Part shown: one piece after another, positions 9,252 through 44,391 of the stretch
Position numbering within the stretch: position 1 is the first letter of the stretch
How the letters are laid out: every line of letters starts with the position of its first letter
From: an uncultured delta proteobacterium
GTDB taxonomy: Bacteria; Desulfobacterota; Syntrophorhabdia; Syntrophorhabdales; WCHB1-27
Assembly (NCBI GenBank): GCA_963810935.1
Contig: CAWEPK010000007.1
Location: 224,001-288,000, forward strand
Length of the DNA: 64,000 nucleotides
Direction of reading: 5' to 3'
Translations under genes and position numbers: made by a program
The notes under the pieces: generated by a model
What the model saw: only the letters and a program-made list of their open reading frames with translations
What the model was told of the DNA's origin: nothing
Databases searched by the model: none

Positions 9252-12200
9252 TTATAGCAATATATGTCCCGGAAGCCCGGTTTGCAGGGGCGCGATTTTT
9301 TCGGCCATGACGTTTATCACGCCGTCCTTGCGCTCAAGCGAGCCGTCAACGACGAGAAGCGGTTCCAGGCGGACGACCTGCCTGTATTTGTTGTAGACGT
9401 CGGGCCTTAGCACTACGTTGATCAGGCCGTCCGGGTCTTCGAGCGTTATGAAGGCGAAGCCCCTGGCCGTAGGCGGCATCTGAAGGCAGACGTTGTAGCC
9501 GCTCACCCTGACGGGCCTGCCTGCGCGCAGGCGTGCAAGGTCGCTGCTTTTTGCAACGCCCGCGCGGGATAGCCCCTCTTCGTATATGTCCAGGAGGTGG
9601 CCCGTCGCGGAAAAGCCCTGCACGCCGTAAGCGGCAAGCAGCTCATCTGTGCCGCTCATCTCGTCGAGTGGCGCAATTTCCGCGGCCCCGAAGTCGATCG
9701 CGTCCGCCGCGTGCGCGCCCTGGCCCATCGCGCCGAGTGCCCAGAGCAACTGCCTGCGCGAGCGTTCCAGGGCGTCGAAGGCGCCGACGACGATCAGACT
9801 CCGCAGAGCGCCTTTATCGAGGCGCGTGCGGACTGTGAAATCTTTGAAAGAGAGGAAAGGGCCGTCCTTGTCCCGTGCAGCCTCTACGGCGCGCGCTGCC
9901 TCCTCGCCCAGGTCCTTCACATAGCGGAAACCGAGTCGCACCTTTTTCTCCTTCGACTGCGCAGAGCGGCCCGCTCGCGTTCACGTCAACGGGGAGAATC
10001 GCGACATCGTGCCGCCTCGCGTTGCCCACGATCACCTCCGGCAGGTAGAACCCCATCGGCTGGTTGTTCAGAAGTGCGCAGTAGAATTCCGCCGGGTAGT
10101 AGAGCTTCAGGTAGGCGGAGCGGTAGCAGAGCAGCGCGAAGCTCATGGCGTGGCTCTTACAGAAGCCGAACTCGGCAAAGCCGCCGATCAGCTCGAATAT
10201 GGCGCAGCGCGGTCTGCCCGTCTATCCCTTTCTCCTTTCGCGCCTGCGACGAAGCGCTCCTGCCATCTTGCGAACTCGGCCCGCGCGTACTTCCGCCCCA
10301 TCGCCTTGCGCAGCCCGTTCGCCTCGGCTGCGGTGAAGCCCGCCGCGGCCATCGCCACTTGCAATATCTGCTCCTGAAAGAGTATGACGCCGAGGGTCTC
10401 CCGCAGCACGGGCTCCAGGAGCGGATGGATGTAGGATGGCGGCTCGCGGCCTGCGCGCCTGCGCATGTAAGGGTTGACCATGTGCCCCTGCAATGGGCCG
10501 GGGCGTATGATGGCGACTTCTATCCCTAAGTCTTCGAGGCTCTTAGGCTTCACCCTCGGCAGGCTCTGCATCTGGGCGCGGCTCTCGACCTGGAAGACGC
10601 CCACCGTATCGGCCCTGCCTATCATGTCGTAGACGCGCGGGTCGTCCTCGGGCAGGCGGTCGAAATCGGGCGCGGCAGCCGCACCGCGCGTATGCCTTAT
10701 CAGGCGGAGCGCCTCGTCGATGAGGGAGAGCATGCGCAGGCCGAGGAGGTCCATCTTGATCAACCCCGAGTCATCGACGCCGTCCTTGTCCCACTGGCAG
10801 ACTACGCGACCTTCCGCCCGCGCCCGCTCAAGGGGGACCATACGGGAGATCGGCTCACACGAGACGATCATCCCGCCGACGTGGATGGACAGGTGCCTCG
10901 GGAAATCGGCTATCTGCCCGGCGACGGCGGTGAAGCGGCCCCACGCTTCCGAGCCGAGGTACCGGGCGAACTCCGGTACGTTCCGCAGGTCGTCAATGGC
11001 GGAGGCGGGGCTGTAAGCGGAGACTGATTTCGCCATCCTGTCGAGCACGTGGGGCGGCAGGCCGAAGGCCTTGCCCACCTCGCGTATCGCGTTGCGCGCC
11101 CGGAACGTCACGTAGGTGCAGACCATCGCCGCGTGCTCTTCGCCGTACTTCCGGTAGACGTACTGGATCACTTCCTCGCGCCGCTGCGTGTCGATATCTA
11201 TGTCGATGTCCGGGACAGCGGACGACTCGTTCAGGAAGCGGCCGACGAAAAGGGCGTGCCTGATGGGATCGACGGGGGTGATGCCCAGCAGATAGGCGAC
11301 GAGCGAGCCTGCGGCCGAGCCGCGCCCCTGCGCGAGGATGGCGTGCGAACGGGCGAACTCTATGATGTCCCATACAATGAGGAAATAGCCGCACATGCCC
11401 TTGCGCTCGATGATGGCAAGCTCCTGGTCGAGCCTCGGCAGCGCATCGGGGGGAGGGGCTTCGCCGTAGCGCACCGGGATGCGCTCTATGCAGAGCCGCC
11501 GCAGGAGGGCAGATTCGGTCTCTCCCGGCGGACACGCGAACACAGGCAGCGAGTAGGACGAGAAATCGAGGTCGAACGCGCAGGCGTCCGCGACCGCGAG
11601 TGTCCGCCGTATCGCGTCCTCCGGCATGCCCGAAAGGCGGCGCATTTCGTCATATCCTTTCAGGTAGTATTCCGAGTTGGGGCGGCGGAAAGGAGCGGAG
11701 TCATCGAGGCTCACCCTGTTTTTGATGCAGGCGAGCACGTCTGCGAGCCTGTGGCCTGGCCGGGCGGCGTAGTGGACGTTGTTCGTGGCAACAGCGGGGA
11801 TGCCTGTTGCGCGGGCGAGGTCACAAAGCTTGCGGCAGAAGCGCGCGTCGCCGGGGTTGAGGTGGTGCTGAAGCTCGATGAAAAAATTGCCGGGGCCGAA
11901 AAGGGAAAGCAGGCGGCGGGCGGCTGCCTGCGCGTCGTCGTACCTGTGCGCGGCAACAAGGGAGGGGACTTCACCTTTCGCGCAGCCGGAAAGGCAGATA
12001 AGTCCGTCCGTCCGGCCCGCGAGAAGGGCAGGGTCGAGGCGCGGCAAGCCTTTGACACCGGAGAGCTGGGATTTTGTAATCAGGCCGCTCAAATTCGCAT
12101 AGCCGACAGCATTGCGGACAAGCAGGGTAAGGTGGGCGCCGCCGCAAAGAGTCAACTCCGCGCCGACAATAGGCTTGACGCCGGCGGCGCCGGCGGCGCG

Positions 12201-12350
12201 GCAAAAGCGCGGGACGGCGTAGAGGCCGTCGTGGTCGGTGAGGGCGAGGGCGGAAAGGCGCATCTGAGATGCGGCCTCAACGAGGGCTTCCGGGAAGGAT
12301 GCTCCGTCGAGGAGGGAAAAGTTGGAATGGGCATGAAGCTCGGCGTACAT
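9252..12350 (-). CDS. dnaE2: Error-prone DNA polymerase III alpha (DnaE2), apparent frameshifts near 9945 and 10200-10240
   Basis: YAELHAHSNFSLLDGAS PHP domain, GRGSAA, PDIDID, LIKMDLLGL, GVFQVESRAQ, GFCKSHA, LLNNQPMGFY, OB-fold FITLED. Confidence 0.9.
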
Positions 12351-12443
12351 TTTCTATCGGAGCTTGACCTGTACAGACATTAGATGTACATAAGAAAGGC
12401 AGCCAGAGATTACAAACAAGAGCAGGAGCAGAAGGAGTAAACC

Positions 12444-12550
12444 ATGAAGTGCGACAAAGAAGAGAAATCTATTCTCGACGCATACAGCAAGGGTAAGCTG
12501 ACTCTATCCATCCCTTCAAAGAAGAAGCTTGATACAATCAAGGCCGCTGT
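12444..12550 (+). pseudogene. Truncated antitoxin-like ORF, preceded by a tiny toxin-like C-terminal remnant
   Basis: MKCDKEEKSILDAYSKG resembles N-termini of CopG/BrnA-like antitoxins; similarity stops at a hairpin-repeat half copy; upstream RKAARDY...* and TTGACC-17-TACATA. Confidence 0.4.
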
Positions 12551-12604
12551 GGCAAGTGGCGAGAACCAAATGAAGGGCAAGTCAAGTTGGTCAATTACAT
12601 CCCC
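12551..12604 (+). repeat. 80-bp hairpin repeat, partial copy 0
   Basis: ggcaagtggcgagaaccaaatgaagggcaagtcaagttggtcaattacatcccc matches the 3' two-thirds of copies 1-3. Confidence 0.85.
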
Positions 12605-12614
12605 TATCGTCCGG

Positions 12615-13013
12615 TCATGCCCAGTTCTCGATCGTGAGCCCCGGGATTCTTTTGAATTCCTTCAGATTGTTGGTCACGAGAATCGCGTCAAGGCTCCGGG
12701 CGTGAGAGGCGATCATCAGATCCATCGCCCCTATGGGCAGTCCCGCCTTCTCCAGATGAGTTCTTATCTCTCCGTAGTGGACCGCCGCAATGTCGTCAAA
12801 AGGAGCTATCTCGAAAGGAGCAAGAAAGCCCATTAGTGCTTCTTCGTTGCGCTCCGGACTGCCGCTCTTGACGACGCCATACCTCAATTCGGCGAGAGTT
12901 ACCGACGATATGCCGACATCGAAGGGCTTCAACGCCCTGAGCCGTTTGGCTACGGCAGGGGGGTTCTTCTTGATGACGTATATGCAGATGTTCGTATCGA
13001 GCATGAAGCGCAT
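12615..13013 (-). CDS. vapC: VapC PIN toxin
   Basis: MLDTNICIY, ELRYG, IGAMDLMIASHA, LVTNNLKEF. Confidence 0.93.
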   Translation of the reverse strand: MRFMLDTNICIYVIKKNPPAVAKRLRALKPFDVGISSVTLAELRYGVVKSGSPERNEEALMGFLAPFEIAPFDDIAAVHYGEIRTHLEKAGLPIGAMDLMIASHARSLDAILVTNNLKEFKRIPGLTIENWA

Positions 13014-13237
13014 CAGAAGTCCCTTTGTTCCACGGCCGGCTGCTTTCTTTCGGTCATGAAATCGTCGGAGAAGCGGCCGAGACTTTCGAAGAACGGCTTC
13101 CACGGGTCTTCCTTCGGAAAGAGGATTACGGTGCCTCCAACCTTGTTCACGTAAACCTCATCCCCCTCGAAACGATACTCCTTCGGCAGTCTTATTGCCT
13201 GGCTCTTGCCGTTCTTGAATATCTTCGCAGTATGCAT
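13013..13237 (-). CDS. vapB: VapB antitoxin (AbrB/MazE type)
   Basis: TAKIFKNGKSQAIRLPKEYRF; TGATG coupling to vapC. Confidence 0.93.
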   Translation of the reverse strand: MHTAKIFKNGKSQAIRLPKEYRFEGDEVYVNKVGGTVILFPKEDPWKPFFESLGRFSDDFMTERKQPAVEQRDF

Positions 13238-13320
13238 GTCCGAGCCTCCTTCTTAGTCTATACTTATGAGTATATACCTTGTGGTGAAGAAGTGCAACTA
13301 TATGTGGGGGGACTATGTGG

Positions 13321-13400
13321 GGGGACGTAGTTGACTAAGTTGACAAGGCAAATGGCGAGAACCAAATGAGGGGCAAGTCAAGTTAGTCAACTGCGTCACC
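13321..13400 (+). repeat. 80-bp hairpin repeat copy 1
   Basis: GGGGACGTAGTTGACTAAGTTGAC...GTCAAGTTAGTCAACTGCGTCACC, ~24-bp terminal inverted repeats. Confidence 0.9.
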
Positions 13401-14393
13401 TAATCGGTTCAGGCTTTTTCGGCGACCGAGGTTATTTACTTATTTACGGTCGTCCCCTTGGGCTTCCTACGCCGTGTGCGCGGTTGTGGACTATGGATAG
13501 CTGCGTCCTTTAGCTGGCCCGGCGGTCGAGTATTTCTTCCTGAAGGGCTATATTTCGCTCGACTGGGCCGAGGGCAAGTGTTACAATCCGTAATGATTGC
13601 TCTAACCAGGAGATATGAGCTTTCCGAGAAAGGGCAAGGGCCGGCTTCATTCATTGAGTCAACAAACGAAACAACCTTGCCACCGACTCCCTAAGCGGCC
13701 CCAACAAAAAAAGAGACTATGTCGATATGACCATGCTTATCACTGAAATCCATTGTATAAATAGCCTATTATCTAATGGCTTTATCGTATTCGCCGCAGA
13801 CCGGCGTATTTCGCGAAGCGGTAATTACGAGGGTAGTCGAAAAAAAATATTCCCTATTCCATATCTTAGGGCCGGGATTGGTTTCTTCGGCCTGGCTGAG
13901 GTGTTTATTACACCCACAACGTCCTTGCCTATGAGCGATTGGCTGTCGAGCTTTATACGAAATAATTCAAGTCTTGGGACTCTGTCACTTTTTGCGAATA
14001 AATTGGCGGAGCAGTTAAACACAGCTATTCCCGCGCAGTCACGACAGAAATATATATCGGGGTTTCACATTGCCGGTTATACTGCTGGTGGAATGCCAGA
14101 ATTCTGGTTCGTCCGCAATGTGGAGGATGATCGCAAAAGTATCACAGGAGTGTACGCGGCAAGGGAGGATTTTCTTAGCAGAGATGCACGGGTCATGGGC
14201 TATGATGGAGTGAATGCGAGTTCGATTAGAACGTCATTTAGACAGACATACCGAAATGGTGATATTCGAGCGCATGTCACGGTGTGGGAGAAGATTGATG
14301 AGGGGTTTTCAGCTCTCGCTAGAGCAGCCGGAATTCAAGAAACTCAGGACGATTTCTGACTATGAGGAGTACGTCAAATTCAAAATGGAAATA

Positions 14394-15042
14394 ATTTCAT
14401 TCTGGTAAACCCCCGGCTCTGCCGGGGGAATCCCGGAGTTTGACAATTCCGGGAATATATAGGAAAGCCTCCTGTATCCGTGAACCGTTTAGGCGGTCGG
14501 CAGAGTTAAGGAGGCTTTCGGTGGAAGATATTCAGAGCTTATGTCATACGGTATGGGATTGCAAGTATCATGTGGTGTGGATTCCGAAGTACCGGAAAAA
14601 GGTACTATACGGGAATCTCAGGAAGGAGCTAGGGCCCATCATCAAGGAGCTGGCGCGGCAGAAGGAGAGCGAGGTGTTGGAGGGGAAACTGGTAGTGGAC
14701 CACGTCCACGTGTTGCTCTCGGTTCCCCCAAAGTATGCCGTTGCCCAGGTGGTAGGCTTTATCAAAGGGAAGAGCGCGATCTACATAGCCCGGATGAGCG
14801 GCAGGAGACGCAACTTCGTAGGTCAGAGCTTTTGGGCCAGAGGTTATTGCGTATCGACCATAGGGTTGGACGAGCAAGCCATACGAGCGTACATCCAAGC
14901 CCAGGAAGAGACAGATCGAAGGCTCGACCAGATGAAACTGTTTGAGAAGGACAAATAGCTGCCTTTAGGCAGCTAACGCACAACTAACCGCTTTGAGCGG
15001 TTCACGGTTTTAACAAACCCCCGGCTTTGCCGGGGGTAGATG
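14394..15042 (+). mobile_element. IS200/IS605-family element (tnpA only)
   Basis: Subterminal hairpins aaacccccggctctgccggggg (~14407) and aaacccccggctttgccggggg (~15015) flank a Y1 transposase; exact ends uncertain by a few bp. Confidence 0.88.
14521..14958 (+). CDS. tnpA: IS200 Y1 HUH transposase
   Basis: CKYHVVWIPKYRKK, DHVHVLL (HUH), FWARGY, IRAYIQAQ. Confidence 0.93.
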   Translation: MEDIQSLCHTVWDCKYHVVWIPKYRKKVLYGNLRKELGPIIKELARQKESEVLEGKLVVDHVHVLLSVPPKYAVAQVVGFIKGKSAIYIARMSGRRRNFVGQSFWARGYCVSTIGLDEQAIRAYIQAQEETDRRLDQMKLFEKDK

Positions 15043-15165
15043 ATTGCGTACTTCTATAAGAGGTATTGTCGAACATCAATTATTGCGAGGCCGATTGACG
15101 CGTTTTCAATCAGTGGGAACACGGGGTAGTGCGATGCCACTTAATAAGTGAGTACCTGTGACGTG

Positions 15166-15245
15166 GGGGACGTGGTTGACTAAGTTGACAAGGCAAATGG
15201 CGAGAACAAAATGAGGGGCAAGTCAAGTTAGTCAACTACGTCTCC
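15166..15245 (+). repeat. 80-bp hairpin repeat copy 2
   Basis: Same sequence and orientation as copy 1 with a few substitutions. Confidence 0.9.
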
Positions 15246-15271
15246 TATCGGTGTAGAAGGAGGTCGCAGAG

Positions 15272-15484
15272 ATGATGAGATGTAATATGACCGACCGGTG
15301 CAATGGCAAGTTTGATTTCACTCAGGGACGAGGAAGGAAAAGAGACTACCGTGATTGTCCTCATCACGGCAACCATACGCCAACAACGGGGGCCTACAAT
15401 GGTAGGGTCGGAAACTGCATGGGAGCCAATCAATGTCCAAATAGAACGCAGGACGCATGGTGCGAGTATGTAAAAGAGGATTAA
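15272..15484 (+). CDS. Small Cys/His-rich hypothetical protein (70 aa)
   Basis: AAGGAGG RBS; 6 Cys; fills the space between repeat copies 2 and 3. Confidence 0.6.
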   Translation: MMRCNMTDRCNGKFDFTQGRGRKRDYRDCPHHGNHTPTTGAYNGRVGNCMGANQCPNRTQDAWCEYVKED

Positions 15485-15506
15485 TATCGCGGCCAAGACG
15501 GACATG

Positions 15507-15586
15507 GGGGACGTAGTTGACTAAATTGACAAGGCAAATGGCGAGAACCAAATGAGGGGCAAGTCAACTCAGTCAACTACGTCCCC
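15507..15586 (+). repeat. 80-bp hairpin repeat copy 3
   Basis: ggggacgtagttgactaaattgac...gtcaactcagtcaactacgtcccc. Confidence 0.9.
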
Positions 15587-15694
15587 TATCGGTGTATCGG
15601 TGTCCTGGCCGACGCAGAGTGGGCTATGTGAGTCACACAACAAACGGATGGAGCCGACTACTTATCGTCCGGTTCAGCCACGCGTGAAAGCTAT

Positions 15695-16567
15695 ATGAAG
15701 AAAAAGAACTATAAGATAGGGCTTGTTGTCGGCCTCTTTCCCGAACAGTATAGGATTGCTGATCCGCGACTGAACAAGCCCGTTTGCCACCAGCAAATAG
15801 AAGAAGGGAAAGTTACAGGCTCAATGCTGCTGCAGGACCTTGAGATAGCAACAATCGACGGAGGCAAAGAGGTTACCTATTTTTGCCCCAACAATGTAGC
15901 CGTATTGTTGTCTGTGAGTTCCAAGGCCCTTGGCAAGGCAAAAGAGTTGTACAAGAAGTTCTTTCGCGCGCCGGATATGGAGTTTCGGATAGAAAAGATT
16001 GAAGGGGACAAGAAGGCTTTTCTAAATCAGGTATCCAGCGAGGTATGCGATTATATCGAGTACGTACAGACGTCCGTTGTGTTTGCTTACACGGCCTTGG
16101 AGACATTTACAAATCTCAGCATTCCTGAAGGATACCTGTATCAGACTGAAAACAAATCGAAAGGCGTAAAAGAAACTTATGACAAAAATGCCATAGAGCG
16201 CTGGCTAAGTCTGAAGGTCAAGGTCCAGCATATCCTAACGGAAATCTATGCAACTGAGAAGGCGGAACATAGGGAATGGTGGGGACACCTTTCTAATTTG
16301 GAACGGTACCGCAATGACATTATCCATCAAAAGACGATTACCAGCACCAGCTTCTATAAAGAGTATTTCAAGGCCACTGTTTTCCCAGCCTGTGAATGCC
16401 CACTGGCAATAATGAAATTCTTCTATGAAGCACACGCACACAACAACAGAACAAACCCGATATGGCCTTGGCTTGTTAACGAGAAGAACTATTTTCCTGT
16501 AAACACTCAATATGATTCGCAGGGTTTTGAAGTAATAGGGAATGCGTATGAAGGAATAAAGGAATGA
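15695..16567 (+). CDS. Hypothetical protein with HEPN-like RxxxxH motif
   Basis: AT-rich 290-aa ORF; AYTALE and RNDIIH. Confidence 0.65.
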   Translation: MKKKNYKIGLVVGLFPEQYRIADPRLNKPVCHQQIEEGKVTGSMLLQDLEIATIDGGKEVTYFCPNNVAVLLSVSSKALGKAKELYKKFFRAPDMEFRIEKIEGDKKAFLNQVSSEVCDYIEYVQTSVVFAYTALETFTNLSIPEGYLYQTENKSKGVKETYDKNAIERWLSLKVKVQHILTEIYATEKAEHREWWGHLSNLERYRNDIIHQKTITSTSFYKEYFKATVFPACECPLAIMKFFYEAHAHNNRTNPIWPWLVNEKNYFPVNTQYDSQGFEVIGNAYEGIKE

Positions 16568-16678
16568 TCTCTAACCGTGCTATGCAGAGAACCGCGCACC
16601 GCTCCCGATGATGGGCCTGATGGCCCAGTGGTTGATATAGGCGACAAGCCATGTAGCCAGCGCATATATGCTACTATA

Positions 16679-16930
16679 TTACATGCTATCCTGCCGGAAC
16701 CACCCGTCGCTGATTAGGTCGCGGAATAGGGTGATGCGCTTCCGGTTTTCCAGCTCGACCAGGAAATAGAGCCGCGAGACTTCGTCTCGCCACCATTCTT
16801 CGTCGATGCGCCATGCATCTACGATACTTGCCACCCGCAGCCGCCTCTTTTTATAGGCTACCGCCAGTGGCCTCCCTTCGCCGTCTATCACGTCAATACC
16901 TTCCGGCTCGTATGGGCCCGGCCTGGACAT
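16679..16930 (-). CDS. DUF6504-like small protein (resembles the ImuB C-terminal module)
   Basis: WRIDEEWWR...RLYFLVE...LFRD...GWF motif typical of imuB-dnaE2 cassettes. Confidence 0.75.
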   Translation of the reverse strand: MSRPGPYEPEGIDVIDGEGRPLAVAYKKRRLRVASIVDAWRIDEEWWRDEVSRLYFLVELENRKRITLFRDLISDGWFRQDSM

Positions 16931-17023
16931 TACTAACCTGTTCTTACCGCGTTACTTATGGGACGTTTCAATATCCCGGCTTGCCTGCATTACGGCTTTG
17001 CTCTCGCTGCGTCCGCCTCACGA

Positions 17024-17128
17024 CACCCCTCCTCCCCCCCCAAAGGGAGAGGGAAAAGGGTAGCCTGCATCGCTTTTGCAGTATCCCAACTATCAACCTA
17101 GGACAACCCGCTCTTACCGCCGCCCAAT
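17024..17128 (+). repeat. Dispersed repeat related to 44203-44335 and (inverted) 43145-43233
   Basis: acccctc...gggagaggg...gcatcgcttttgcagtatccc...acaacccgctcttaccgccgcccaa. Confidence 0.7.
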
Positions 17129-17388
17129 GGATGCGCAGCATCGCTGCTTCCGTTAGCGGCGGTTGCGGTTGGAGGAACGCCTCAAGGGGTCGTGATATGT
17201 GGATGCAATGTGAGACGTGGCGGCCGGAGATCGTACATAGGTACATCGGAGGCCCCAAGTCGAGCAGGGCGCCGCATAGCGCGGCCCCGCAGCAGGCGCG
17301 AGTCCAGCCGCCCGCAGTGCTCCGCCGTTGCTTTTTTGCCTCTTGTTTTTGTCACATCTATCCGCGTTGGTTTTGCCACCACCACCCG

Positions 17389-18573
17389 CTACGCATCCAC
17401 AAACCTCAACTGTCTCTCCGGCAGGCGCGAGTATGTGTCCCCTTCCTCCACCTTCAAAAGCGGCATATGCCCGTACCGTGCATTGAAATAGGACCGCACG
17501 CCGTCCAGGCGCTCAAGGAACGCCGAGCGCTTGCGGAACAGGCTCTCCTGCTCGCCGTCCGCGAAGACCGGCTCCGGTATCGCTAGCCGCAGCGCTACTA
17601 CCGGCCCGTCCAGGGTTAGGCTCTCTACGAAGTCCGACAGCCGCGCAAGCACCTCGTGGGCCTGTCCCGCCGGCTTCTTCATCACGATGGCCTTCTTGAG
17701 CGCACCCCCGCCCTGGAGGCGGAAAGACGCCTCGATCTTCCTGCACGCCATGCGCATGCGGCCAAGCTCTTCGGCAAGCTCCGACAACAGGCCCTCCATA
17801 ACTGCGCGCACCTGCCCCGACGTCTCTAAGGGCGCGTCGCACGTAAACTCCCTTTCAAGGCAGATAGGGTTGCGGCGCCGTACGATGGGTCTTCTCTCGT
17901 CCATGCCGTGCGCGGTCTCGAAAATGGCGGACCCCTTCGGGCCGAATTGCGCAGTGAGCGCCTTGCGCGACAGGGCGGCGACTTTTTTCAGCGTTGACAG
18001 GCCCAGCATCTGCAAATGCTCTTTTTCCGCCTCGTCGAGGGGGAGGGCATCGGCGGGCAGGAGCGAAAGAAACTCGATCTCTCCGCCCGGCTCGATGACG
18101 AGGCTGTCCCAGGCGCAGGATGCGGCCTGCCGCGCGATAAAGCGCGAGTTGCCGACGCCCGTCCTCGCACGCAAACGCGCGAGAGCGAGCATGTCGCGGC
18201 AGACGGCGGCGGCAGCGGCCTTCTCTCCGCCGTGGACGTGCGACGCCCTGGTGATGTCCAGGTAGGCCGTCCCGCATCCTTCCGGCTCGATCCTCAAAGA
18301 GAAGGCGCCGAGGGCGAATAAAACGTCCGCCCATACGGATTGGCACTTGCCGCTGTCGGGGAGGAAGAGGGCGTCGGGGCAGCGCAGGGAGGCGTCCCGC
18401 ATCGACATGCCGGCAAGCACGCCGGCCTGCGCTGCCTCTTCCGAGCAGTCGAGGGCGCGCCCGCCGCCATCCGCCGCATCGTATATGACGACAGGGCGGT
18501 CAGGGGGAAGGGGGCGGGACAAGCCCTCGACCTGGACATAGAAATGAGGAAAATGAACGCAGATAATTCGCAT
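17389..18573 (-). CDS. imuB: ImuB-type Y-family polymerase homolog (probably catalytically inactive)
   Basis: MRIICVHFPHFYVQ, CSEEAAQAGVLAGM, AYLD, GVGNSRFIA, RLPERQ; the DinB catalytic Asp/SIDE motifs are replaced. Confidence 0.85.
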   Translation of the reverse strand: MRIICVHFPHFYVQVEGLSRPLPPDRPVVIYDAADGGGRALDCSEEAAQAGVLAGMSMRDASLRCPDALFLPDSGKCQSVWADVLFALGAFSLRIEPEGCGTAYLDITRASHVHGGEKAAAAAVCRDMLALARLRARTGVGNSRFIARQAASCAWDSLVIEPGGEIEFLSLLPADALPLDEAEKEHLQMLGLSTLKKVAALSRKALTAQFGPKGSAIFETAHGMDERRPIVRRRNPICLEREFTCDAPLETSGQVRAVMEGLLSELAEELGRMRMACRKIEASFRLQGGGALKKAIVMKKPAGQAHEVLARLSDFVESLTLDGPVVALRLAIPEPVFADGEQESLFRKRSAFLERLDGVRSYFNARYGHMPLLKVEEGDTYSRLPERQLRFVDA

Positions 18574-18576
18574 GGC

Positions 18577-18612
18577 TTGATTAATATAGTACATGCGTAC
18601 TATATTAATCAA
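18577..18612. promoter_or_regulatory. Perfect palindrome, candidate LexA operator upstream of imuB
   Basis: TTGATTAATATAGTAC-ATGC-GTACTATATTAATCAA (16-bp arms, GTAC-N4-GTAC core). Confidence 0.65.
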
Positions 18613-20146: not shown

Positions 20147-23100
20147 CTACCAAGCCTTCTGGAAGTTCGTCTGGTAGATCGCTCCGCCCCTCGCGTTGTA
20201 TATGGTTGCGATGTTCTGCCCGACGTTGACCGCCGACCCTACAGCGTTCAGGATGATCATGCCGGACGTATTCGACTGCGAGCCGTCCAGGACGATCGAA
20301 GAGCTGTTGTTCTGCCCGCCTGACGATCCCATATAGCTGTTAGACTGGTCCGCTTTGCTCTTTGCATAAGCGTACTGAACGTTGACCTGGTGGATATCGA
20401 CGTCCGCCCCGCAGGCTTCGATGATGTTCTGACCCACGTTGACGGCCGACATGGCTGCGTTCACTACGGACAGTGCCGATAACCCGTTCTGCGAGTTGAT
20501 AAGGTCTATGGAGCCGTTGTTGGCAGTCTGGGACATCGTTTTTCCGGACTTCACCTGCTGGTCCGCATAGACGTCGGCTGCTGCGACCTGCAGGTTCGCC
20601 TGTAGCACGTTTATATGGCTTCCCGCCTGGACCGTGGCTATGTTCTGGCCGATGTTGCCCGCCGACCCCGCCAGGTTCGCGATGGATTCCGCAGACGCGT
20701 AATCCTGCGAGCCGACCATCTGTATGGAGGCGTTGTTCGCCGTCGCCTTGTCCGTGTCGCCGTTCATGATCGACTGTGTGTAAGTGCCCAGGACGCCTGA
20801 TGCCTGCGCGTTCGCCTGGATGAAGCCCGCGTTCATGGTCGCGGTTACGTCTGCTACGTTCTGGCCGACGTTGGCCGCGGAGCCTGCCGCGTTAAGGATG
20901 GAGAGTGCGCTCGTGACGCTCTGGGAGTCGATAAGCTGGATCGAGGCGTTGTTGCTCGCCTGCTTCATTACGCCTTTGCTGCCGACTTCCTGCGTTACGG
21001 CGGTGTCGAGTCCGGCGCCCTGGAGGTTCGCCTGGACAAAGTAAACGTTTTTCCCGTCCGCCGTGGCGATGTTCTGCCCTATGTTGCCGGCGGTGGCGGC
21101 CATGTTAGCAAAAGAGATCCCCTTCCCGTCGTTCTGTGAATCGACGGCCTGCACGGAGCCGTTGTTATTGGCCTGCTGCATCACGCCGTAGCTCATCACC
21201 GTCTGGAGGACCGGCGCCGCTTCGAGCGCGACCTGCACGTTGGCCTGCGCGAACGCTACAAGCGCGGACTGCATTTTGTCCACTCCCTCGACGTTCGCTA
21301 TGTTCTGGCCGATGTTAGCCGCAGAACCCGCGATGTTGGCCAGGGAATCGGCATCAACGTAGTTCTGCGAGCCGCCGCCCAGGAGCTGCACCGATCCGTT
21401 GTTGTTAGCCTGCTTCGTGGCCATGCCGCTCGCCACTGTCTGGGCCGACCCGTTGTAGGAGGCCGCGAGCTGGAGGTTGAGCTGGAGGAAAGCTGCCGCT
21501 TCGGCCACTTCCACGCTCGCCATGTTCTGCCCTACGTTCGCCGCCGAAGAGGCTACGTTTGCCACTGAAAGTGCCTGGACGTGGTTCTGGGAGTCATCGA
21601 GCCGGACGGAAGCGTTGTTATTCACCTGTTCTGTTGCACTGCCGCTCACGACTGTCTGTGAGAAGCCTTCCGTGCTGAGCGCGACCTGGCCGTTCAACTG
21701 GGTAAAGATGGCCCCTAAGGCCTCGACGTTCGCTATGTTCTGGCCGATGTTGCCCGCCGAGCCCGCGATGTTGGCCAGGGAATCGGCATCAACGTAGTTC
21801 TGCGAGCCGCCGCCCAGGATCTGGAGGGACCCGTTGTTATTGGCCTGTCCCGTCACGCCGTACCCGGTCACGAACTGTACGCCCGTCGCCTCCGTAGAGG
21901 CAGTCTGGAGGTTGGCCTGCGCGAACCCGGCCAGGCCGGCCACCACGCTCGCGACGTTCTGACCGAGGTTGACGGAAGAGAGGGCCGCGTCGAGTATCGA
22001 GACGCCGCTTGCGATGTTCTGGCTGTCGATCATGTAGACCGAGCCGTTGTTGTTCGTCTGGCTGGTCGCGTTCATATTATCCACGTACTGGACTGCGGTG
22101 CTGTCCACTCCGGTCTTCTGGAGGTTGGTCTGGAGGAAACTCGTGCTCAGCGCGGCGACGTCGATGATGTTCTGCCCGATGTTGGCCGCGGCGCCCGCCA
22201 GGTTGGCAATGCTCATCGCGCTCGCGTTGCCTTGCGAACCGGAGAGCCATACGGAGTCGTAATTGTTGTTGGAGTAAGAAGAGTCGCCCGGTCTTCTTTC
22301 GCCCGGCACCAGGCCGTCGACTGCGACTACCTTGTCGCTCTGCAAGTTCTTCTGCGTGGCATAGGCCACCTTTGTGGTGGTGATGCTCGCGATGTTCTGG
22401 CCGATATTGGCCTGCGTCTCAGCCGCATTCAGGATCGACAGGCCGGTCGCGGCGTTCTGGGCGCCTGCGAGCTGCACCGACTCGGCGTTGTTGTTCTGGT
22501 GGTCGGTCATGCCCTTGTTTTCGACCGTCTGCCCGTAAGTAATCTCCGTTGCGTCGATCTGCGCGGATTGCTTGTTCGTCTGCTTGACGTTCGTATCGCC
22601 CATGCTTGTCACGTCGGCCACGTTCTGCCCCACGTTGACCGCCGACGCTGCGGCGTTGACGAGGGAGTCGGCGGAGACGGCGTTCTGGGCGTCCCATATC
22701 TGGACGGAGCCGTCGTTGTTGAACTGGTTGCTCGTCTTCCCGTAGTTGGTCACGTACTGGGAGGCATCCGCTTCAGAAAAGGCGGTCTGCCTGTTCAACT
22801 GCGTCACGTCGAAAGGCCCGTTCTTGACGGAGGCGATGTTCTGCCCGACGTTGACGGCAGACTGCGCGGCGTTCGTCATGGCGATGGCGTTCACGCTGTT
22901 CTGAGCGCCGTCATACACCTGGACGGACCCGGCGTTGTTGATCTGGCCGGCTACGCCCTTCTTGTTCTCGACCGTCTGGTACACGTCGCCGGAGTTGTTT
23001 GCGGTCTGCACGTTTTTCTGATTGACGCTTATGTACGCCTTGTCCCCGCCGCCCGTTATCGAGGCGACGTTCTGCCCGACGTTGACGGCAGACAGCGCGG

Positions 23101-24478
23101 CGTCGACCAGCGCTATAGACGAGGCGCCTTCCTGTGCGTTATCCGCAGCCATGACGGAGGCGTTGGAGTTGGCCTGGTTCGTGACCATGCCGTAATTGGT
23201 GACTTTCTGCGTGTTGCCCGTGATTATCGGGTCGTCGAAAACGCCGTTGTTCGCCGTCTGATAATTCTTCTGGTTGAAGGAGAACTTGCCGCGTTCCATC
23301 ATGCCGGACATATCTGCGGAGGCGATGTTCTGCCCCACGTTGACAGCCGAGTTGGCGGTGTTCGTCAGGGCGTCCGTCTTCGAGTAAGACTGCGCCGAAT
23401 CGCCGATGGCGACAGCGGTGCTGAAGTTGCTCTGACCCGTGACGGCGTACTTGTTCTTCACCGTCTGCTCAGTCGCGGCGAAATTGGTTGCATCCTGGCT
23501 ATTGTTCTGGCTCGCCTTGAGGTCGTACGCCGTAGAGGAGATGAAGTTCTGGCCGATATTAACCGCTGAAAGGGCCGCGTTGGCGATAGCAAGGCCGCTG
23601 GCCTCATTCTGCGCGGTATCGCCGGCAACTACCGAGCCGTTGTTACTTGCCTGGCCGGCGACTGTCCCGTAGTTCTTGACGTACTGTACGGCCGACGCGT
23701 CGCTTGTCGCTTCCTGGGAATTGACCTGCTGGACGTAGATGCCGTCAGCCTTGCCCAGGGAGGCCAGCGTCTGCCCGATATTAAGCGCCGAGGCTGCCAC
23801 GTTCCCGAGCGCCAATGCCGAGATATTCGACTGGGCCGAGCCGCCCAGGTCGACCGACCCGTTGTTGTTGGCCTGGCTCATGACCCACATCTTGTTTGTA
23901 ACTTTCTGCTCGGCCGCGCCTGTGAACGTGCCGACCTGGGAGTTGTTCTGGCGGAGGTCGACGTCGGATGACATATCTCCCACGCTCGCGATCTGCTGGG
24001 AGATATCGGCTGCTGCGTACCCGGAGTTGAGCATCTGGAATGCTGAGGCCCCCGACTGCGCGCTCCCGCCCAATACCACCGAGCCCACGTTATTGTACTG
24101 GTTGCCCACGGAGGTGTGGTTTGTCTGGGAGACGAAGAGCGGCATCGCACTATTCGTCGCGCTCTCGGTCGTGTCTGAATAGGAGCTGAAGTGCGTCACG
24201 CTTTCGAGATCGACGATGTTCTGGTGGATGTTCATGTTATCCATGACCACGTTGTAGACAGTCATGGCGGAGGAGCCTGATTGGGCCGTCCCTCCGAGTT
24301 GCACGGCATTGAAATTGTTGTATTCCGCTGAAATCCCCGGTGTAACCGTTTCGAAGCCCTTTGCGCTGACTGTCCCGAGGTCTTCGTCGGTCATCACGCT
24401 GACGCCCGCTGACGCGGTGAAGAATGGCGCGACGACGAGAAGAGACGATAACACGAACCGAAAAACGGACCGTTTCAT
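20147..24478 (-). CDS. Giant secreted Asn/Gln/Ala/Ser-rich repeat protein, Fap-amyloid-like
   Basis: Signal peptide, MTDEDLGTVSAKG, ~19 repeats of ~73 aa with QxNNNGSVxL..SQ..AS..S..N.A.SA.N(V/I)GQN(I/V)A. Confidence 0.85.
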   Translation of the reverse strand: MKRSVFRFVLSSLLVVAPFFTASAGVSVMTDEDLGTVSAKGFETVTPGISAEYNNFNAVQLGGTAQSGSSAMTVYNVVMDNMNIHQNIVDLESVTHFSSYSDTTESATNSAMPLFVSQTNHTSVGNQYNNVGSVVLGGSAQSGASAFQMLNSGYAAADISQQIASVGDMSSDVDLRQNNSQVGTFTGAAEQKVTNKMWVMSQANNNGSVDLGGSAQSNISALALGNVAASALNIGQTLASLGKADGIYVQQVNSQEATSDASAVQYVKNYGTVAGQASNNGSVVAGDTAQNEASGLAIANAALSAVNIGQNFISSTAYDLKASQNNSQDATNFAATEQTVKNKYAVTGQSNFSTAVAIGDSAQSYSKTDALTNTANSAVNVGQNIASADMSGMMERGKFSFNQKNYQTANNGVFDDPIITGNTQKVTNYGMVTNQANSNASVMAADNAQEGASSIALVDAALSAVNVGQNVASITGGGDKAYISVNQKNVQTANNSGDVYQTVENKKGVAGQINNAGSVQVYDGAQNSVNAIAMTNAAQSAVNVGQNIASVKNGPFDVTQLNRQTAFSEADASQYVTNYGKTSNQFNNDGSVQIWDAQNAVSADSLVNAAASAVNVGQNVADVTSMGDTNVKQTNKQSAQIDATEITYGQTVENKGMTDHQNNNAESVQLAGAQNAATGLSILNAAETQANIGQNIASITTTKVAYATQKNLQSDKVVAVDGLVPGERRPGDSSYSNNNYDSVWLSGSQGNASAMSIANLAGAAANIGQNIIDVAALSTSFLQTNLQKTGVDSTAVQYVDNMNATSQTNNNGSVYMIDSQNIASGVSILDAALSSVNLGQNVASVVAGLAGFAQANLQTASTEATGVQFVTGYGVTGQANNNGSLQILGGGSQNYVDADSLANIAGSAGNIGQNIANVEALGAIFTQLNGQVALSTEGFSQTVVSGSATEQVNNNASVRLDDSQNHVQALSVANVASSAANVGQNMASVEVAEAAAFLQLNLQLAASYNGSAQTVASGMATKQANNNGSVQLLGGGSQNYVDADSLANIAGSAANIGQNIANVEGVDKMQSALVAFAQANVQVALEAAPVLQTVMSYGVMQQANNNGSVQAVDSQNDGKGISFANMAATAGNIGQNIATADGKNVYFVQANLQGAGLDTAVTQEVGSKGVMKQASNNASIQLIDSQSVTSALSILNAAGSAANVGQNVADVTATMNAGFIQANAQASGVLGTYTQSIMNGDTDKATANNASIQMVGSQDYASAESIANLAGSAGNIGQNIATVQAGSHINVLQANLQVAAADVYADQQVKSGKTMSQTANNGSIDLINSQNGLSALSVVNAAMSAVNVGQNIIEACGADVDIHQVNVQYAYAKSKADQSNSYMGSSGGQNNSSSIVLDGSQSNTSGMIILNAVGSAVNVGQNIATIYNARGGAIYQTNFQKAW

Positions 24479-35989: not shown

Positions 35990-37930
35990 ATGAAACGCTG
36001 CGTCCTTATTCTTTCGATCCTGCTTCTTCTCCTGGCGCCTGCGGCCTCCTGCTTTGCCGGTGATCGGTTCCTTGCCGTCTGCTATCACGACATTACCGAG
36101 AGGCCGGTTGCGCGGGAGGATTTTACGCCGGATGATCTGGCGAAGCAGCTCGCCTTTTTCCGCGAGAACGGCTACCGGCCTGTCCGCATCGCAGACATTG
36201 AGGAGGCGGCGGCGGGCAGAAAAGCACTCCCCGAAAAGGCGCTCCTCCTTACTTTCGACGACGGCTACCTCAGCTTCTACAAGATCGTCTACCCCATTCT
36301 CCGCGCGTTCAACTGGCCTGCGGTCCTTTCGGTGGTCACGTCATGGGCGGATGGACGCGACGCCCCCGGCCCGCCTTACAAGGATAAACAGTTCCTGACG
36401 TGGGACCAGATAAGGGAAGTGGCTGCCTCCGGGCTCGTCACCGTCGTTCCACATTCGGACTCCATGCACGAGTTCGTCCGCTCGAACCCGCAGGGCAACA
36501 TCGAGCCGTCGATGACTACGTTCATATTCGATGATAAGGCGGGCGCGTACGAGACGGAGGAGCACTACAGGGCGCGGGTCAGGGCTGACATGGAGAAGAC
36601 CGTTTCCGTTTTTTCAGAGCGGCTCGGCTCGAAGCCTACCGTCTACACGTGGCCGTACAGCGCCTACAACAGCATAGCCCTCGACGAGGCGAAGAGGGCG
36701 GGCTTCCGCGTCTTTTTGACCGTTGACGAGGGCCTTGCAGATACGGGTCGCCTCGACCGCGTCAACCGCATCTACGCGCAGAACATGGTCTGTCCGGCGC
36801 CCTCCTTCAAGGAAGATTTGAAAGGCGGGCTCGTCGATGCAATGCCCATCCGCGCAGTCCAGATCGACCTGGACAAGATAGTCGATCCGGCTTCGGCAAA
36901 AGAGAGCGACGCGCGCTTGGGCGCGTGCCTGGACAGGCTCGCTTCCCTCGGCGTTAACACCGTCATCGTCCAGGCCTTCTGCGACACGGAAGGCACGGGC
37001 AATGTGAAGTCCGTCTATTTCGCGACCTCGGCGCTTCCCGTAGTGATGGATTTTCTGAGCCACGCAGTCAACCGGATAATGGCCAGGGGCATGCAGGCAT
37101 TCGTCTGGATGCCGTCCCTTGCCTTCGAGACGCCCGACACGGCGGCGAACGAGGCACTCCGGGTGCGCGAGCTTCGCGGCGGGAAGGTGCACTTATCCGA
37201 TGCGTCGTATAAGAGGCTTTCTCCCTTCGACGCAAGGAGCCTTGTTGCTTCGAGGCAGATCTTCCGCGACCTCGCTGCATACGTAGATTTCGACGGCCTT
37301 CTCTTCCAGGACGATGCGTACCTGACCGACGAAGAGGACTACCACCCGGCGGCGGCAGCGGCATTCAAAAAAAGGTTCCGCATGGACCTCTCGCCCAAGG
37401 CGCTCAAAAAGAAGGGGGTCATGACGAGGTGGGCGGCTATGAAGACACAGGCGATCGACAGGTACCTGGCCGACCTCACCGGCGTCGTGCGCGCGTACCA
37501 CCCGTGCGCGAAGATTGCAAGGAACATTTACAGCGAGGTCGTCACCAACCCGGAAGCGACCGTCTGGTTCGCCCAGGACCTGCCGTCGTTCCTGCGCAAC
37601 TACGATTATACGGTTATCATGGCCTATTCGCGCATGGAGAAGATCAGGGATAAGGCGAAGGCGAGAAGGTGGTTCAAAGAGATGTTCGACCGGGTGAAGG
37701 CCGCTCACGGGACGGACAAGGTCATATTCAAGGTACAGGCTTACGACTGGGACAAGGACGCATGGATCGACGAGTCCGCGATAAGGGAAGAGATCGAGTA
37801 CGTGCTATCCCTCGGCGCAAAGCATGTGGCGTATTATCCTGACGGCGTGATAGAGGACAAGCCGGGAAAGGACAAGATAGCGCCGGTCATCTCGGGTCAG
37901 GAGTACGTGCGCGACATCAGGCGGCACTAG
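35990..37930 (+). CDS. pgaB: PgaB PNAG N-deacetylase/hydrolase, copy 1
   Basis: CYHD, LLTFDDGY, HSDSMH, WPY, RLSPF, FQDDAYL, YYPD. Confidence 0.9.
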   Translation: MKRCVLILSILLLLLAPAASCFAGDRFLAVCYHDITERPVAREDFTPDDLAKQLAFFRENGYRPVRIADIEEAAAGRKALPEKALLLTFDDGYLSFYKIVYPILRAFNWPAVLSVVTSWADGRDAPGPPYKDKQFLTWDQIREVAASGLVTVVPHSDSMHEFVRSNPQGNIEPSMTTFIFDDKAGAYETEEHYRARVRADMEKTVSVFSERLGSKPTVYTWPYSAYNSIALDEAKRAGFRVFLTVDEGLADTGRLDRVNRIYAQNMVCPAPSFKEDLKGGLVDAMPIRAVQIDLDKIVDPASAKESDARLGACLDRLASLGVNTVIVQAFCDTEGTGNVKSVYFATSALPVVMDFLSHAVNRIMARGMQAFVWMPSLAFETPDTAANEALRVRELRGGKVHLSDASYKRLSPFDARSLVASRQIFRDLAAYVDFDGLLFQDDAYLTDEEDYHPAAAAAFKKRFRMDLSPKALKKKGVMTRWAAMKTQAIDRYLADLTGVVRAYHPCAKIARNIYSEVVTNPEATVWFAQDLPSFLRNYDYTVIMAYSRMEKIRDKAKARRWFKEMFDRVKAAHGTDKVIFKVQAYDWDKDAWIDESAIREEIEYVLSLGAKHVAYYPDGVIEDKPGKDKIAPVISGQEYVRDIRRH

Positions 37931-38082
37931 CAGGCCGAGCCGCCGGCCGGACCCGCGCCTGCCGCCGAGACACCTGACATTCAGTCGGCCCAGAAACATG
38001 ATGGCCTGCTATATTGGAAGCCTACGATTTTCCTTGCCTTTCGGGCGGTCACTACGCAACAAGCGTCACACCGGGGATATGT

Positions 38083-44335: not shown

Positions 44336-44391
44336 ATTGGTTTTGCTTTTTTTTTGGCCTATCGCGATTTGATGGCGATCGCTCCCACCCG

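Follow-up and report, generated by a model that had tools for sequence, protein, structure and literature searches.

Co-oriented 80-bp hairpin repeats between an imuB-linked gene and dnaE2 of an uncultured delta proteobacterium are likely gene-less miniature TIRtrons

TIRtrons, their TIRYT transposases, families of terminal inverted repeats (TIRs) and dimers of TIRs were described in 2013 by Di Nocera, De Gregorio, and Rocco (PMC3733652). The text of that paper presents a TIRtron as a Y1 transposase gene flanked by TIRs headed by GGGG, one of which lies over the stop codon; elsewhere TIRs can stand alone, form dimers or be grouped, and a GGGGWSAS motif is common to some or most of them, not all. 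Quentin et al. (2018) equate subclass 2.1 of the TnpA-Y1 transposases with these TIRYTs and, in the sections that treat it, give it as the second-largest Y1 group, found in 14.9% of species (PMC6006769). The same subclass corresponds to RAYT Group 1 in the relevant passages of Bertels et al. (2017, PMC5581495). For E. coli, the account of TnpA-REP in the text of Ton-Hoang et al. (2012, PMC3333891) pairs an HUH enzyme with gene-less hairpin dimers (REP/BIME) that are amplified head to tail with variable linkers; the enzyme carries out strand transfer, and both rolling-circle-like amplification and capture of flanking genes have been proposed. In this report, we describe four copies of an 80-bp hairpin repeat in an island of accessory genes. 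The island lies within a 64,000-nucleotide stretch of an uncultured delta proteobacterium (assembly GCA_963810935.1, contig CAWEPK010000007.1, positions 224,001 to 288,000), here called the window, and window positions are used throughout. The genome that holds the window (G000) measures 4.06 Mb and is 93% complete.

Three full copies of the repeat are found at 13321..13400, 15166..15245, and 15507..15586 (copies 2, 3, and 4), and a 54-bp right-hand remnant (copy 1) is found at 12551..12604; all four have the same orientation (+). The full copies agree pairwise at 74–76 of 80 positions (differences at 4–6 positions), and the remnant is identical to each of them at 47 of its 54. The 24-bp arms of the full copies are complementary at 21–22 of 24 positions, and their single strands are predicted to fold into long hairpins (z −5.4 to −7.0, with 0 of 200 shuffles equally good), a fold that the remnant lacks (z +0.2). 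Coordinates, identity, and folding confirm the first-pass annotation, which had recorded four same-orientation copies, one of them partial, with terminal inverted repeats of about 24 bp. Since both the GGGGAC and GTCCCC termini are intact in copy 4 only, the set of repeats appears to be decaying; the right terminus of copy 2 has decayed, and copy 1 lost its left arm at a GGCAA microhomology with an antitoxin gene.

An outer tail of 10 bp is common to copies 3 and 4. Two exact tandem duplications, both noticed in the first-pass annotation, adjoin the copies. The first (13301..13326, +) comprises the left tail of copy 2 plus the start of its arm, with 13 bp at 13301–13313 repeated at 13314–13326. 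The second follows copy 4 (15587..15602), with 8 bp at 15587–15594 repeated at 15595–15602. Copy 3 carries a promoter-like site (TTGACA-16-CAAAAT) that faces the next open reading frame (ORF); across the region, such sites are overall not above chance. No Rfam family reached its threshold in the region, and PADLOC returned no convincing match.

Within G000, the whole 80-mer is confined to this locus, and it has no match in 95 other genomes of the order. The core of the element gave 0 exact matches in a metagenome scan. A single arm is common: an 18-mer of it is matched exactly at 19 loci in public species genomes, most of them labelled as delta-proteobacterial, and an arm with at most one mismatch is present in 18 of 22 genomes of the family. 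Public contigs span copy 4 with both of its flanks and also copy 1; these contigs come from one study, possibly the source of the assembly, and are not independent of it. The one contig joint that starts in copy 2 (13345 to 17286) is not an excision product; it represents the lone arm that contig C3 carries next to another repeat.

The arms of the repeat were found to flank a transposase gene elsewhere in the same genome. An intact gene for a 317-aa HUH/Y1 transposase is located outside the window at G000:C8:711999-712952, bounded by 27-bp perfect inverted repeats that contain the window arm, and the right arm overlaps the stop codon. These TIRs match the 24-bp arms of the window at 21–23 of 24 nucleotides. 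The protein contains the motifs NHFH (61), HLFQ (98), and YIHLNP (121), and matches PF01797 (Y1_Tnp) over its cut-off (E 2.7e-8) and NF047646 below its cut-off (E 9e-17). A C-terminal helix-turn-helix (HTH) extension matches HTH_24 over its cut-off and Bac_DnaA_C with E 0.0026. By this motif signature, the enzyme is classified as a TIRYT of TnpA-Y1 subclass 2.1. For subclass 2.1 and RAYT Group 1, the sections consulted in PMC6006769 and PMC5581495 likewise give NH[YF]H, FQ, and Y[IV]HLNP motifs, a C-terminal HTH, prevalence in delta-proteobacteria, and a more IS-like character than that of other RAYTs. In contrast to the case presented here, with non-autonomous miniature elements and near-identical copies at new sites, the authors detected no REP-like partner, and those sections name no substrate, cleavage site, or function.

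Arms and enzymes were compared over 39 rows, in 9 of which no arm was found. The upstream arms of all 5 homologues of at least 70% identity are 21–23/24 identical to the window arm. Among the homologues below 50% identity for which an arm was found, 23 of 24 score 12–18 and one scores 21. The arm and the enzyme thus co-vary. Because the arms of the 80-mers are shared with the ends of a TIRYT gene, the repeats are TIR dimers, and the four hairpins are likely gene-less miniature TIRtrons (minis). The first-pass annotation was right to propose clustered, non-autonomous elements of HUH/RAYT type at junctions of variable accessory DNA. Its view that the repeats belong to no described family is not sustained, as TIR dimers of TIRtrons are on record (PMC3733652; subclass 2.1, PMC6006769). 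It was right that the hairpins of the IS200 TnpA in the window differ from these repeats; the cognate transposase gene bounded by the same ends does exist, outside the window on contig C8.

Three neighborhoods of related arms were noted. The intact TIRtron on C8 sits among Rhs toxin-tip and immunity-like genes (G000:C8:711350-715500). A relative has a related Rhs module with three arms at a different chromosomal site (G002:C24). At G000:C5:357000-357870, two arms of the window family enclose a TIRYT that belongs to another TIR family and has been shortened to 97 aa by an internal deletion, as nested elements.

The family of elements leaves recurrent footprints. TIRtrons that are 97–99% identical occupy different sites in three genomes (G010, G014, and G017); their homology stops 3–10 bp outside the G-runs, and no target duplication was seen. 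From these comparisons, TIRtrons appear to move, which would explain the shared outer tails of the window copies. In G012, the terminal 50 bp of a 153-bp mini are 80–83% identical to TIRYT gene ends. TIR ends of all families were located with a strict scan at 19/22 identity, which returned 22 ends in G000 versus 1 in a reversed control; a looser scan at 17/22 (152 matches versus 114) was dropped. Tail duplications of at least 8 nucleotides occur at 28 of 186 strict TIR ends versus 32 of 3610 other GGGACG sites (Fisher p 8e-22, with kin that are not independent). This strict count replaced a looser first set, which had given 29 of 215. Terminal micro-duplications are therefore a signature of the family, to which those of copies 2 and 4 belong.

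These footprints match, by analogy, the rolling-circle-like amplification proposed for E. coli TnpA-REP in the text of PMC3333891. The reading that we favor, and hold to be fairly probable, is that TIRYT minis multiplied locally in one orientation amid older, decayed integron-type cassettes and that cargo was trimmed by deletion. It draws on the shared arms, the intact enzyme gene, the clustering and co-orientation of the copies, the micro-duplications, the joints to unrelated DNA, the decayed attC site, and the broken cargo. On the E. coli model, we infer that the TIRYT would bind the single-stranded hairpin and nick a few bases outside the GGGG ends. The freed 3′-OH would prime copying or attack a second nick. 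Head-to-tail repeats, from 8 bp up to whole minis, would result without target duplication, and copying would sometimes drag neighboring DNA along. Host deletions would then remove DNA between and into the copies, halting at addictive toxin–antitoxin (TA) operons. The minis likely mark the joints at which cargo was trimmed in this way, and the array now looks like a decaying relic. Compared with REP/BIME, the window elements have no GTAG guide, end outwardly in GGGG, and form a long hairpin between their arms instead of short REP stems; the few copies of the window family lie in accessory islands, whereas REPs number hundreds in core intergenic DNA and their enzyme is of subclass 2.2.

Several observations weigh against this reading. 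No measured activity of a TIRYT was found in the literature searched. The window arm reads GGGGACGT and agrees with the published GGGGWSAS consensus at 6 of 8 positions, a difference from described TIRtrons. The 32-bp spacer of the window repeats resembles known TIRYT leaders over its first 11–12 bases only, and therefore the minis may descend from a sister TIRtron and not from the copy on C8. Among public contigs, no joint connects two copies, which is a weak test since contigs drop rare forms. Finally, vapBC and a 70-aa ORF lie within 2–25 bp of elements, and the promoter of a TA pair in G012 begins directly behind an element tail; both suit precise capture as well as trimming.

The polarity of the repeats and the genes between them bear directly on capture. 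Among TIR-bearing repeats of at least 50 bp that lie more than 150 bp apart in any of the loci examined, 19 of 19 pairs (from 10 loci) are direct and 0 inverted. In addition to these pairs, the region G020:C24 (1-10000) contains six co-oriented mini-TIRtrons of about 250 bp, 1.1–4 kb apart, which retain the first ~33 TIRYT codons. Nucleotidyltransferase and DUF433/DUF5615 TA cargo and other accessory genes lie between them. In G012, an ankyrin gene and a TA pair of PIN type lie between two 97%-identical minis; the promoter of the TA pair begins directly after the element tail, and synteny upstream of the mini pair is broken in all 5 congeners. Co-oriented minis bracket TA cargo in two other genera. 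In G002, a 240-bp, 95% identical copy of the neighboring Rhs core lies between two co-oriented arms, and the site of that island is empty in G000. Elsewhere, congeners lack the DNA around 5 of 5 tested arm sites (three further sites left out). The text of PMC3733652 makes no mention of arrays of co-oriented minis between cargo genes, of micro-duplications at the termini, or of an association with attC. No description of co-oriented mini-TIRtron arrays was found in the literature searched, which did not cover subscription journals, and figures or supplements of the cited papers may show such clusters.

These arrangements could also be explained if the TIRYT excised and integrated circles of an element plus adjacent cargo at the minis, which would form co-oriented arrays. 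Subclass 2.1 HUH transposases would then run a second, integrase-free cassette system in which minis serve as directional single-stranded DNA recombination sites for TA and defense genes, spread into integron arrays, and take control of cassettes that afterwards lose their attC sites to decay. The strict co-orientation of the 19 pairs speaks for this explanation, as do the TA operons fused to element tails at the −35 box in G000 and G012, the TA and single-gene intervals between co-oriented minis in G020, G012, and G009, the recurrence in three genera, the Rhs core copy in G002, the 5 arm sites in DNA missing from congeners, and the co-orientation of TIRYT genes with attC wherever one locus holds both. 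Moreover, TnpA-REP cleaves far from its hairpin, and sequestration of flanking genes has been proposed in the text of PMC3333891. However, the search for a cargo unit that keeps these arms in a second context found none, the island is not delimited by the elements, the units are composite or broken, and copy 1 was cut inside its spacer and not at an end. Three of the four copies have damaged termini, and the missing contig joint between copies, weak as that test is, counts here as well. We therefore regard this explanation as doubtful.

Either way, one genome provides a matched pair of an intact 317-aa enzyme and an 80-base putative substrate, and the footprints (outer tails of 3–10 bp, micro-duplications, and co-orientation) predict the cut sites and copying mode of subclass 2.1. 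The long-open function of this subclass is therefore testable with oligonucleotides. If the TIRYT does move cargo, this would be an unrecognized route by which TA and defense genes spread in anaerobic soil bacteria; if it does not, arrays of this kind are relics, and care is needed not to take them for new integrons.

The island occupies the gap between dnaE2 and an imuB-linked ORF. On its left it begins at the start codon of the error-prone polymerase gene dnaE2, whose 5′ ORF lies at 10188..12350 (−; NF004225 E 5.9e-229, PF07733). On its right are a conserved 83-aa ORF and an imuB-like gene (16679..18612, −; PF00817), which normally adjoin dnaE2 in relatives. In 7 relatives (G001, G009, G011, G014, G017, G019, and G021), the 83-aa ORF and dnaE2 are at most ~110 bp apart and the site is empty. 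In G002, with flanks 92% identical, the same gap is filled by a different island of 4.1 kb that has none of the window arms. The site is therefore a hot spot independent of these elements, which do not delimit the island. The first-pass annotation had placed the array in the SOS mutasome, which is correct as to position, but the link is only positional. Its suggestion to compare empty imuB–dnaE2 loci yielded the 7 empty sites together with the armless cargo of G002.

A hot spot would also accommodate independent insertions, in which each mini jumped separately into permissive DNA, the replication fork set the orientation, and host recombination between direct repeats did the rest. In keeping with this explanation, the site is occupied irrespective of these arms, several TIR families and an IS200 have piled up there, and all 7 IS200 copies of G000 follow the local GC skew. 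It is difficult to reconcile with the 80-mer being nowhere else in the genome and with outer tails shared between copies (10 bp in copies 3 and 4). Upstream-type arms follow the local skew in 6 of 10 loci only, and two on the same contig are opposite (with weak skew and arm type partly inferred). Replication bias alone appears to fit the orientation poorly, and we consider independent insertion unlikely.

Traces of an integron are present inside the array. A decayed attC site with a mutated R′ box lies at 15636..15688 (+). It was recognized by a profile built from 35 attC sites (E 0.022) and is the second-best match in the genome, where the best match of the reversed genome has E 2.9. Its first 21 nucleotides are identical to an intact attC in G455, and the two are 85% identical over 47 nucleotides (E 2.9e-7). 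Downstream of the HEPN-like gene, a further candidate attC in a more advanced state of decay (16569..16620, +) was seen by eye only and was missed by the profile. The same profile does not match the 80-mers, yet it matches the decayed attC 50 bp away, and on this evidence the 80-bp repeats are not attC sites. It also failed to detect the flanks in G005 and G030 that look attC-like by eye, and it gave no attC in the island of G002. No integron integrase (TIGR02249) over the cut-off was found in G000. The segment 13466–13640 was considered as an intI/attI remnant and found no support in a comparison with 6 integrase loci.

An integron integrase might use the hairpins as attC sites of an atypical kind, or the TnpA of the IS200 in the window might act on them. 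They are single-stranded DNA hairpins in a cassette-like array, integron integrases over the cut-off occur in 3 of 22 family genomes, and an IS200 lies within the array. This explanation is very improbable and already contradicted by the profile results, by the absence of an integrase over the cut-off from G000, and by the arms, which flank a different Y1 gene. The IS200 (14397..15045, +; tnpA 14521-14958, NF033573 over its cut-off; ends set from copies) is present in 7 copies in the genome, with its own ends and hairpins and without the window arms, and is unrelated to the 80-bp repeats. IS200/IS605 elements share Y1 chemistry, single-stranded DNA hairpins, and the lack of target duplication with the minis, but they have asymmetric ends with subterminal hairpins and lack TIRs, whereas the 80-mers have 24-bp TIRs. 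The window IS200 inserted at a later time and has no relation to the repeats.

A CALIN consists of two or more attC sites without an integrase. The island resembles one in its co-oriented single-stranded DNA hairpins between AT-rich TA and defense-like genes and in its real decayed attC. It differs in that the 80-bp repeats lack attC boxes, in that G000 has no IntI over the cut-off, and in that its units are not one gene plus one site; one decayed attC was scored and the second was seen by eye only. No integron-type unit (one intact gene and one site, mobile as such) was found. Two of the five units look like former integron cassettes, and two are broken. The proposal of the first-pass annotation that the repeats collect cargo like an integron without attC is therefore not demonstrated, given also the decayed attC in the array, the unbounded island, and the armless G002 island.

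The best attC-profile match in the genome lies 940 bp from another solitary arm; for a position chosen at random, the chance of a strict TIR within 1 kb is 0.86%. When a loose multi-family pattern is used, a TIR or TIRtron lies no more than 1.5 kb from 6 of 7 attC loci of the family, one of them inside an integron with a broken intI; with strict TIRs, the count is 2 of 5. In the sister family f4, only 1 of 25 attC loci has a TIR nearby, with arms taken mostly from the family of the window. Of 30 TIRYT-match loci, 4 have an attC match, and in each of these the TIRYT gene points the same way as the attC. The association of TIRs with attC is not general. At G010:C19:345000-361200, an intact TIRtron is embedded in an attC array and shares its orientation, a broken intI lies ~7 kb away, and a 99% identical copy lies in a second attC cluster.

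The cargo of the island has a GC content of 0.45–0.53, versus 0.58 for the genome and 0.64–0.65 for imuB/dnaE2. The first-pass annotation had assigned one AT-rich unit to each interval; the low GC holds, but the second interval contains the end of a second TIR family, a 105-bp element, and an Ntn-hydrolase gene interrupted by IS200. With its decayed attC and a broken TA module, the island is a palimpsest. The broken module, which we take to be BrnT/BrnA-like, lies at 12351..12550 (+). Its promoter palindrome is kept, its toxin is internally deleted, and, as had been proposed, its antitoxin is truncated at the partial copy, after ~36 codons. The cut falls at the GGCAA microhomology with the spacer of copy 1, which is broken inside that spacer and not at the element end; it therefore suggests a host-type deletion. 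The module has 62–69% amino acid identity to intact modules in G005, G030, and G033, which have attC-like flanks by eye (one at 11.4 bits on the attC profile) and no window arms.

Between copies 1 and 2, an intact vapBC operon extends from its −35 box to the toxin stop (12613..13298, −; NF047863 and NF047862 over their cut-offs). Only 8 bp separate it from copy 1, and 2 bp from the tail duplication of copy 2. It is 95% identical to G014:C171 over exactly promoter to stop, and the G014 locus is without arms. After copy 2 comes the right end repeat of a second GGGGAC TIR family (13431..13457, −), which matches a TIRYT-flanking arm at 20 of 22 positions and has 92–97% matches in loci of the G017-G019-G007 family. 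It is followed by a conserved non-coding element of ~105 bp (13536..13640, +) with a promoter-like site (9/12); relatives have 72–86% matches to it at 12 loci, and G000 itself has them at 4 further places. This element has a TACAAT promoter-like box and no Rfam match, abuts a third, different GGGGAC TIR type in relatives, and often precedes AT-rich accessory genes in family genomes; it is possibly a mobile promoter. The sole DNA common to the G000 and G002 islands is an 80-bp stretch at 79% identity (window 13466-13544; G002:C6), which is not intI.

The gene for the Ntn hydrolase (proteasome-beta fold) lies at 13727..15141 (+), has a frameshift at ~14317 in the assembly, with one public contig that lacks the extra base behind it, and resumes its C-terminus beyond the IS200. 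Its family comprises 175 homologues of about 248 aa with no Pfam family, and the gene was not found in 21 family genomes. The model predicted for one homologue resembles 20S proteasome subunits (E 2e-6). The family is mobile and uncharacterized. Between copies 3 and 4 lies a 70-aa Cys-rich ORFan with a ribosome-binding site (15272..15484, +), for which a protein search returned itself only. Copy 4 is followed by a short gene tail and the decayed attC, and then by the gene for a 290-aa HEPN-like protein (15695..16567, +). This protein has an invariant R206-x4-H211, 234 homologues in many phyla, and a weak fold match of its predicted model to HEPN toxins (probability 0.97 but E 0.21). The gene was not found in 400 genomes of the phylum, and its search gave no viral loci and 2 distant plasmid matches.

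Further observations concern the flanks. The dnaE2 gene (9252-12350, −) is split into three reading frames (10188-12350, 9814-10146, and 9252-9941), which may reflect decay after the island separated dnaE2 from imuB, or assembly errors. Copies of an abundant multi-hairpin intergenic repeat lie upstream of the 83-aa ORF at 17063-17350, and IS200 copies elsewhere in the genome insert into another such repeat. At 20147-24478 (−), the window encodes a 1443-aa protein in which a repeat of ~72 aa occurs at least 14 times, presumably curlin-like by its appearance, beside smaller genes of similar composition. Long inverted paralogous segments at 36144-37934 and 44388-46178, 71–76% complementary, surround a region of 8 kb.

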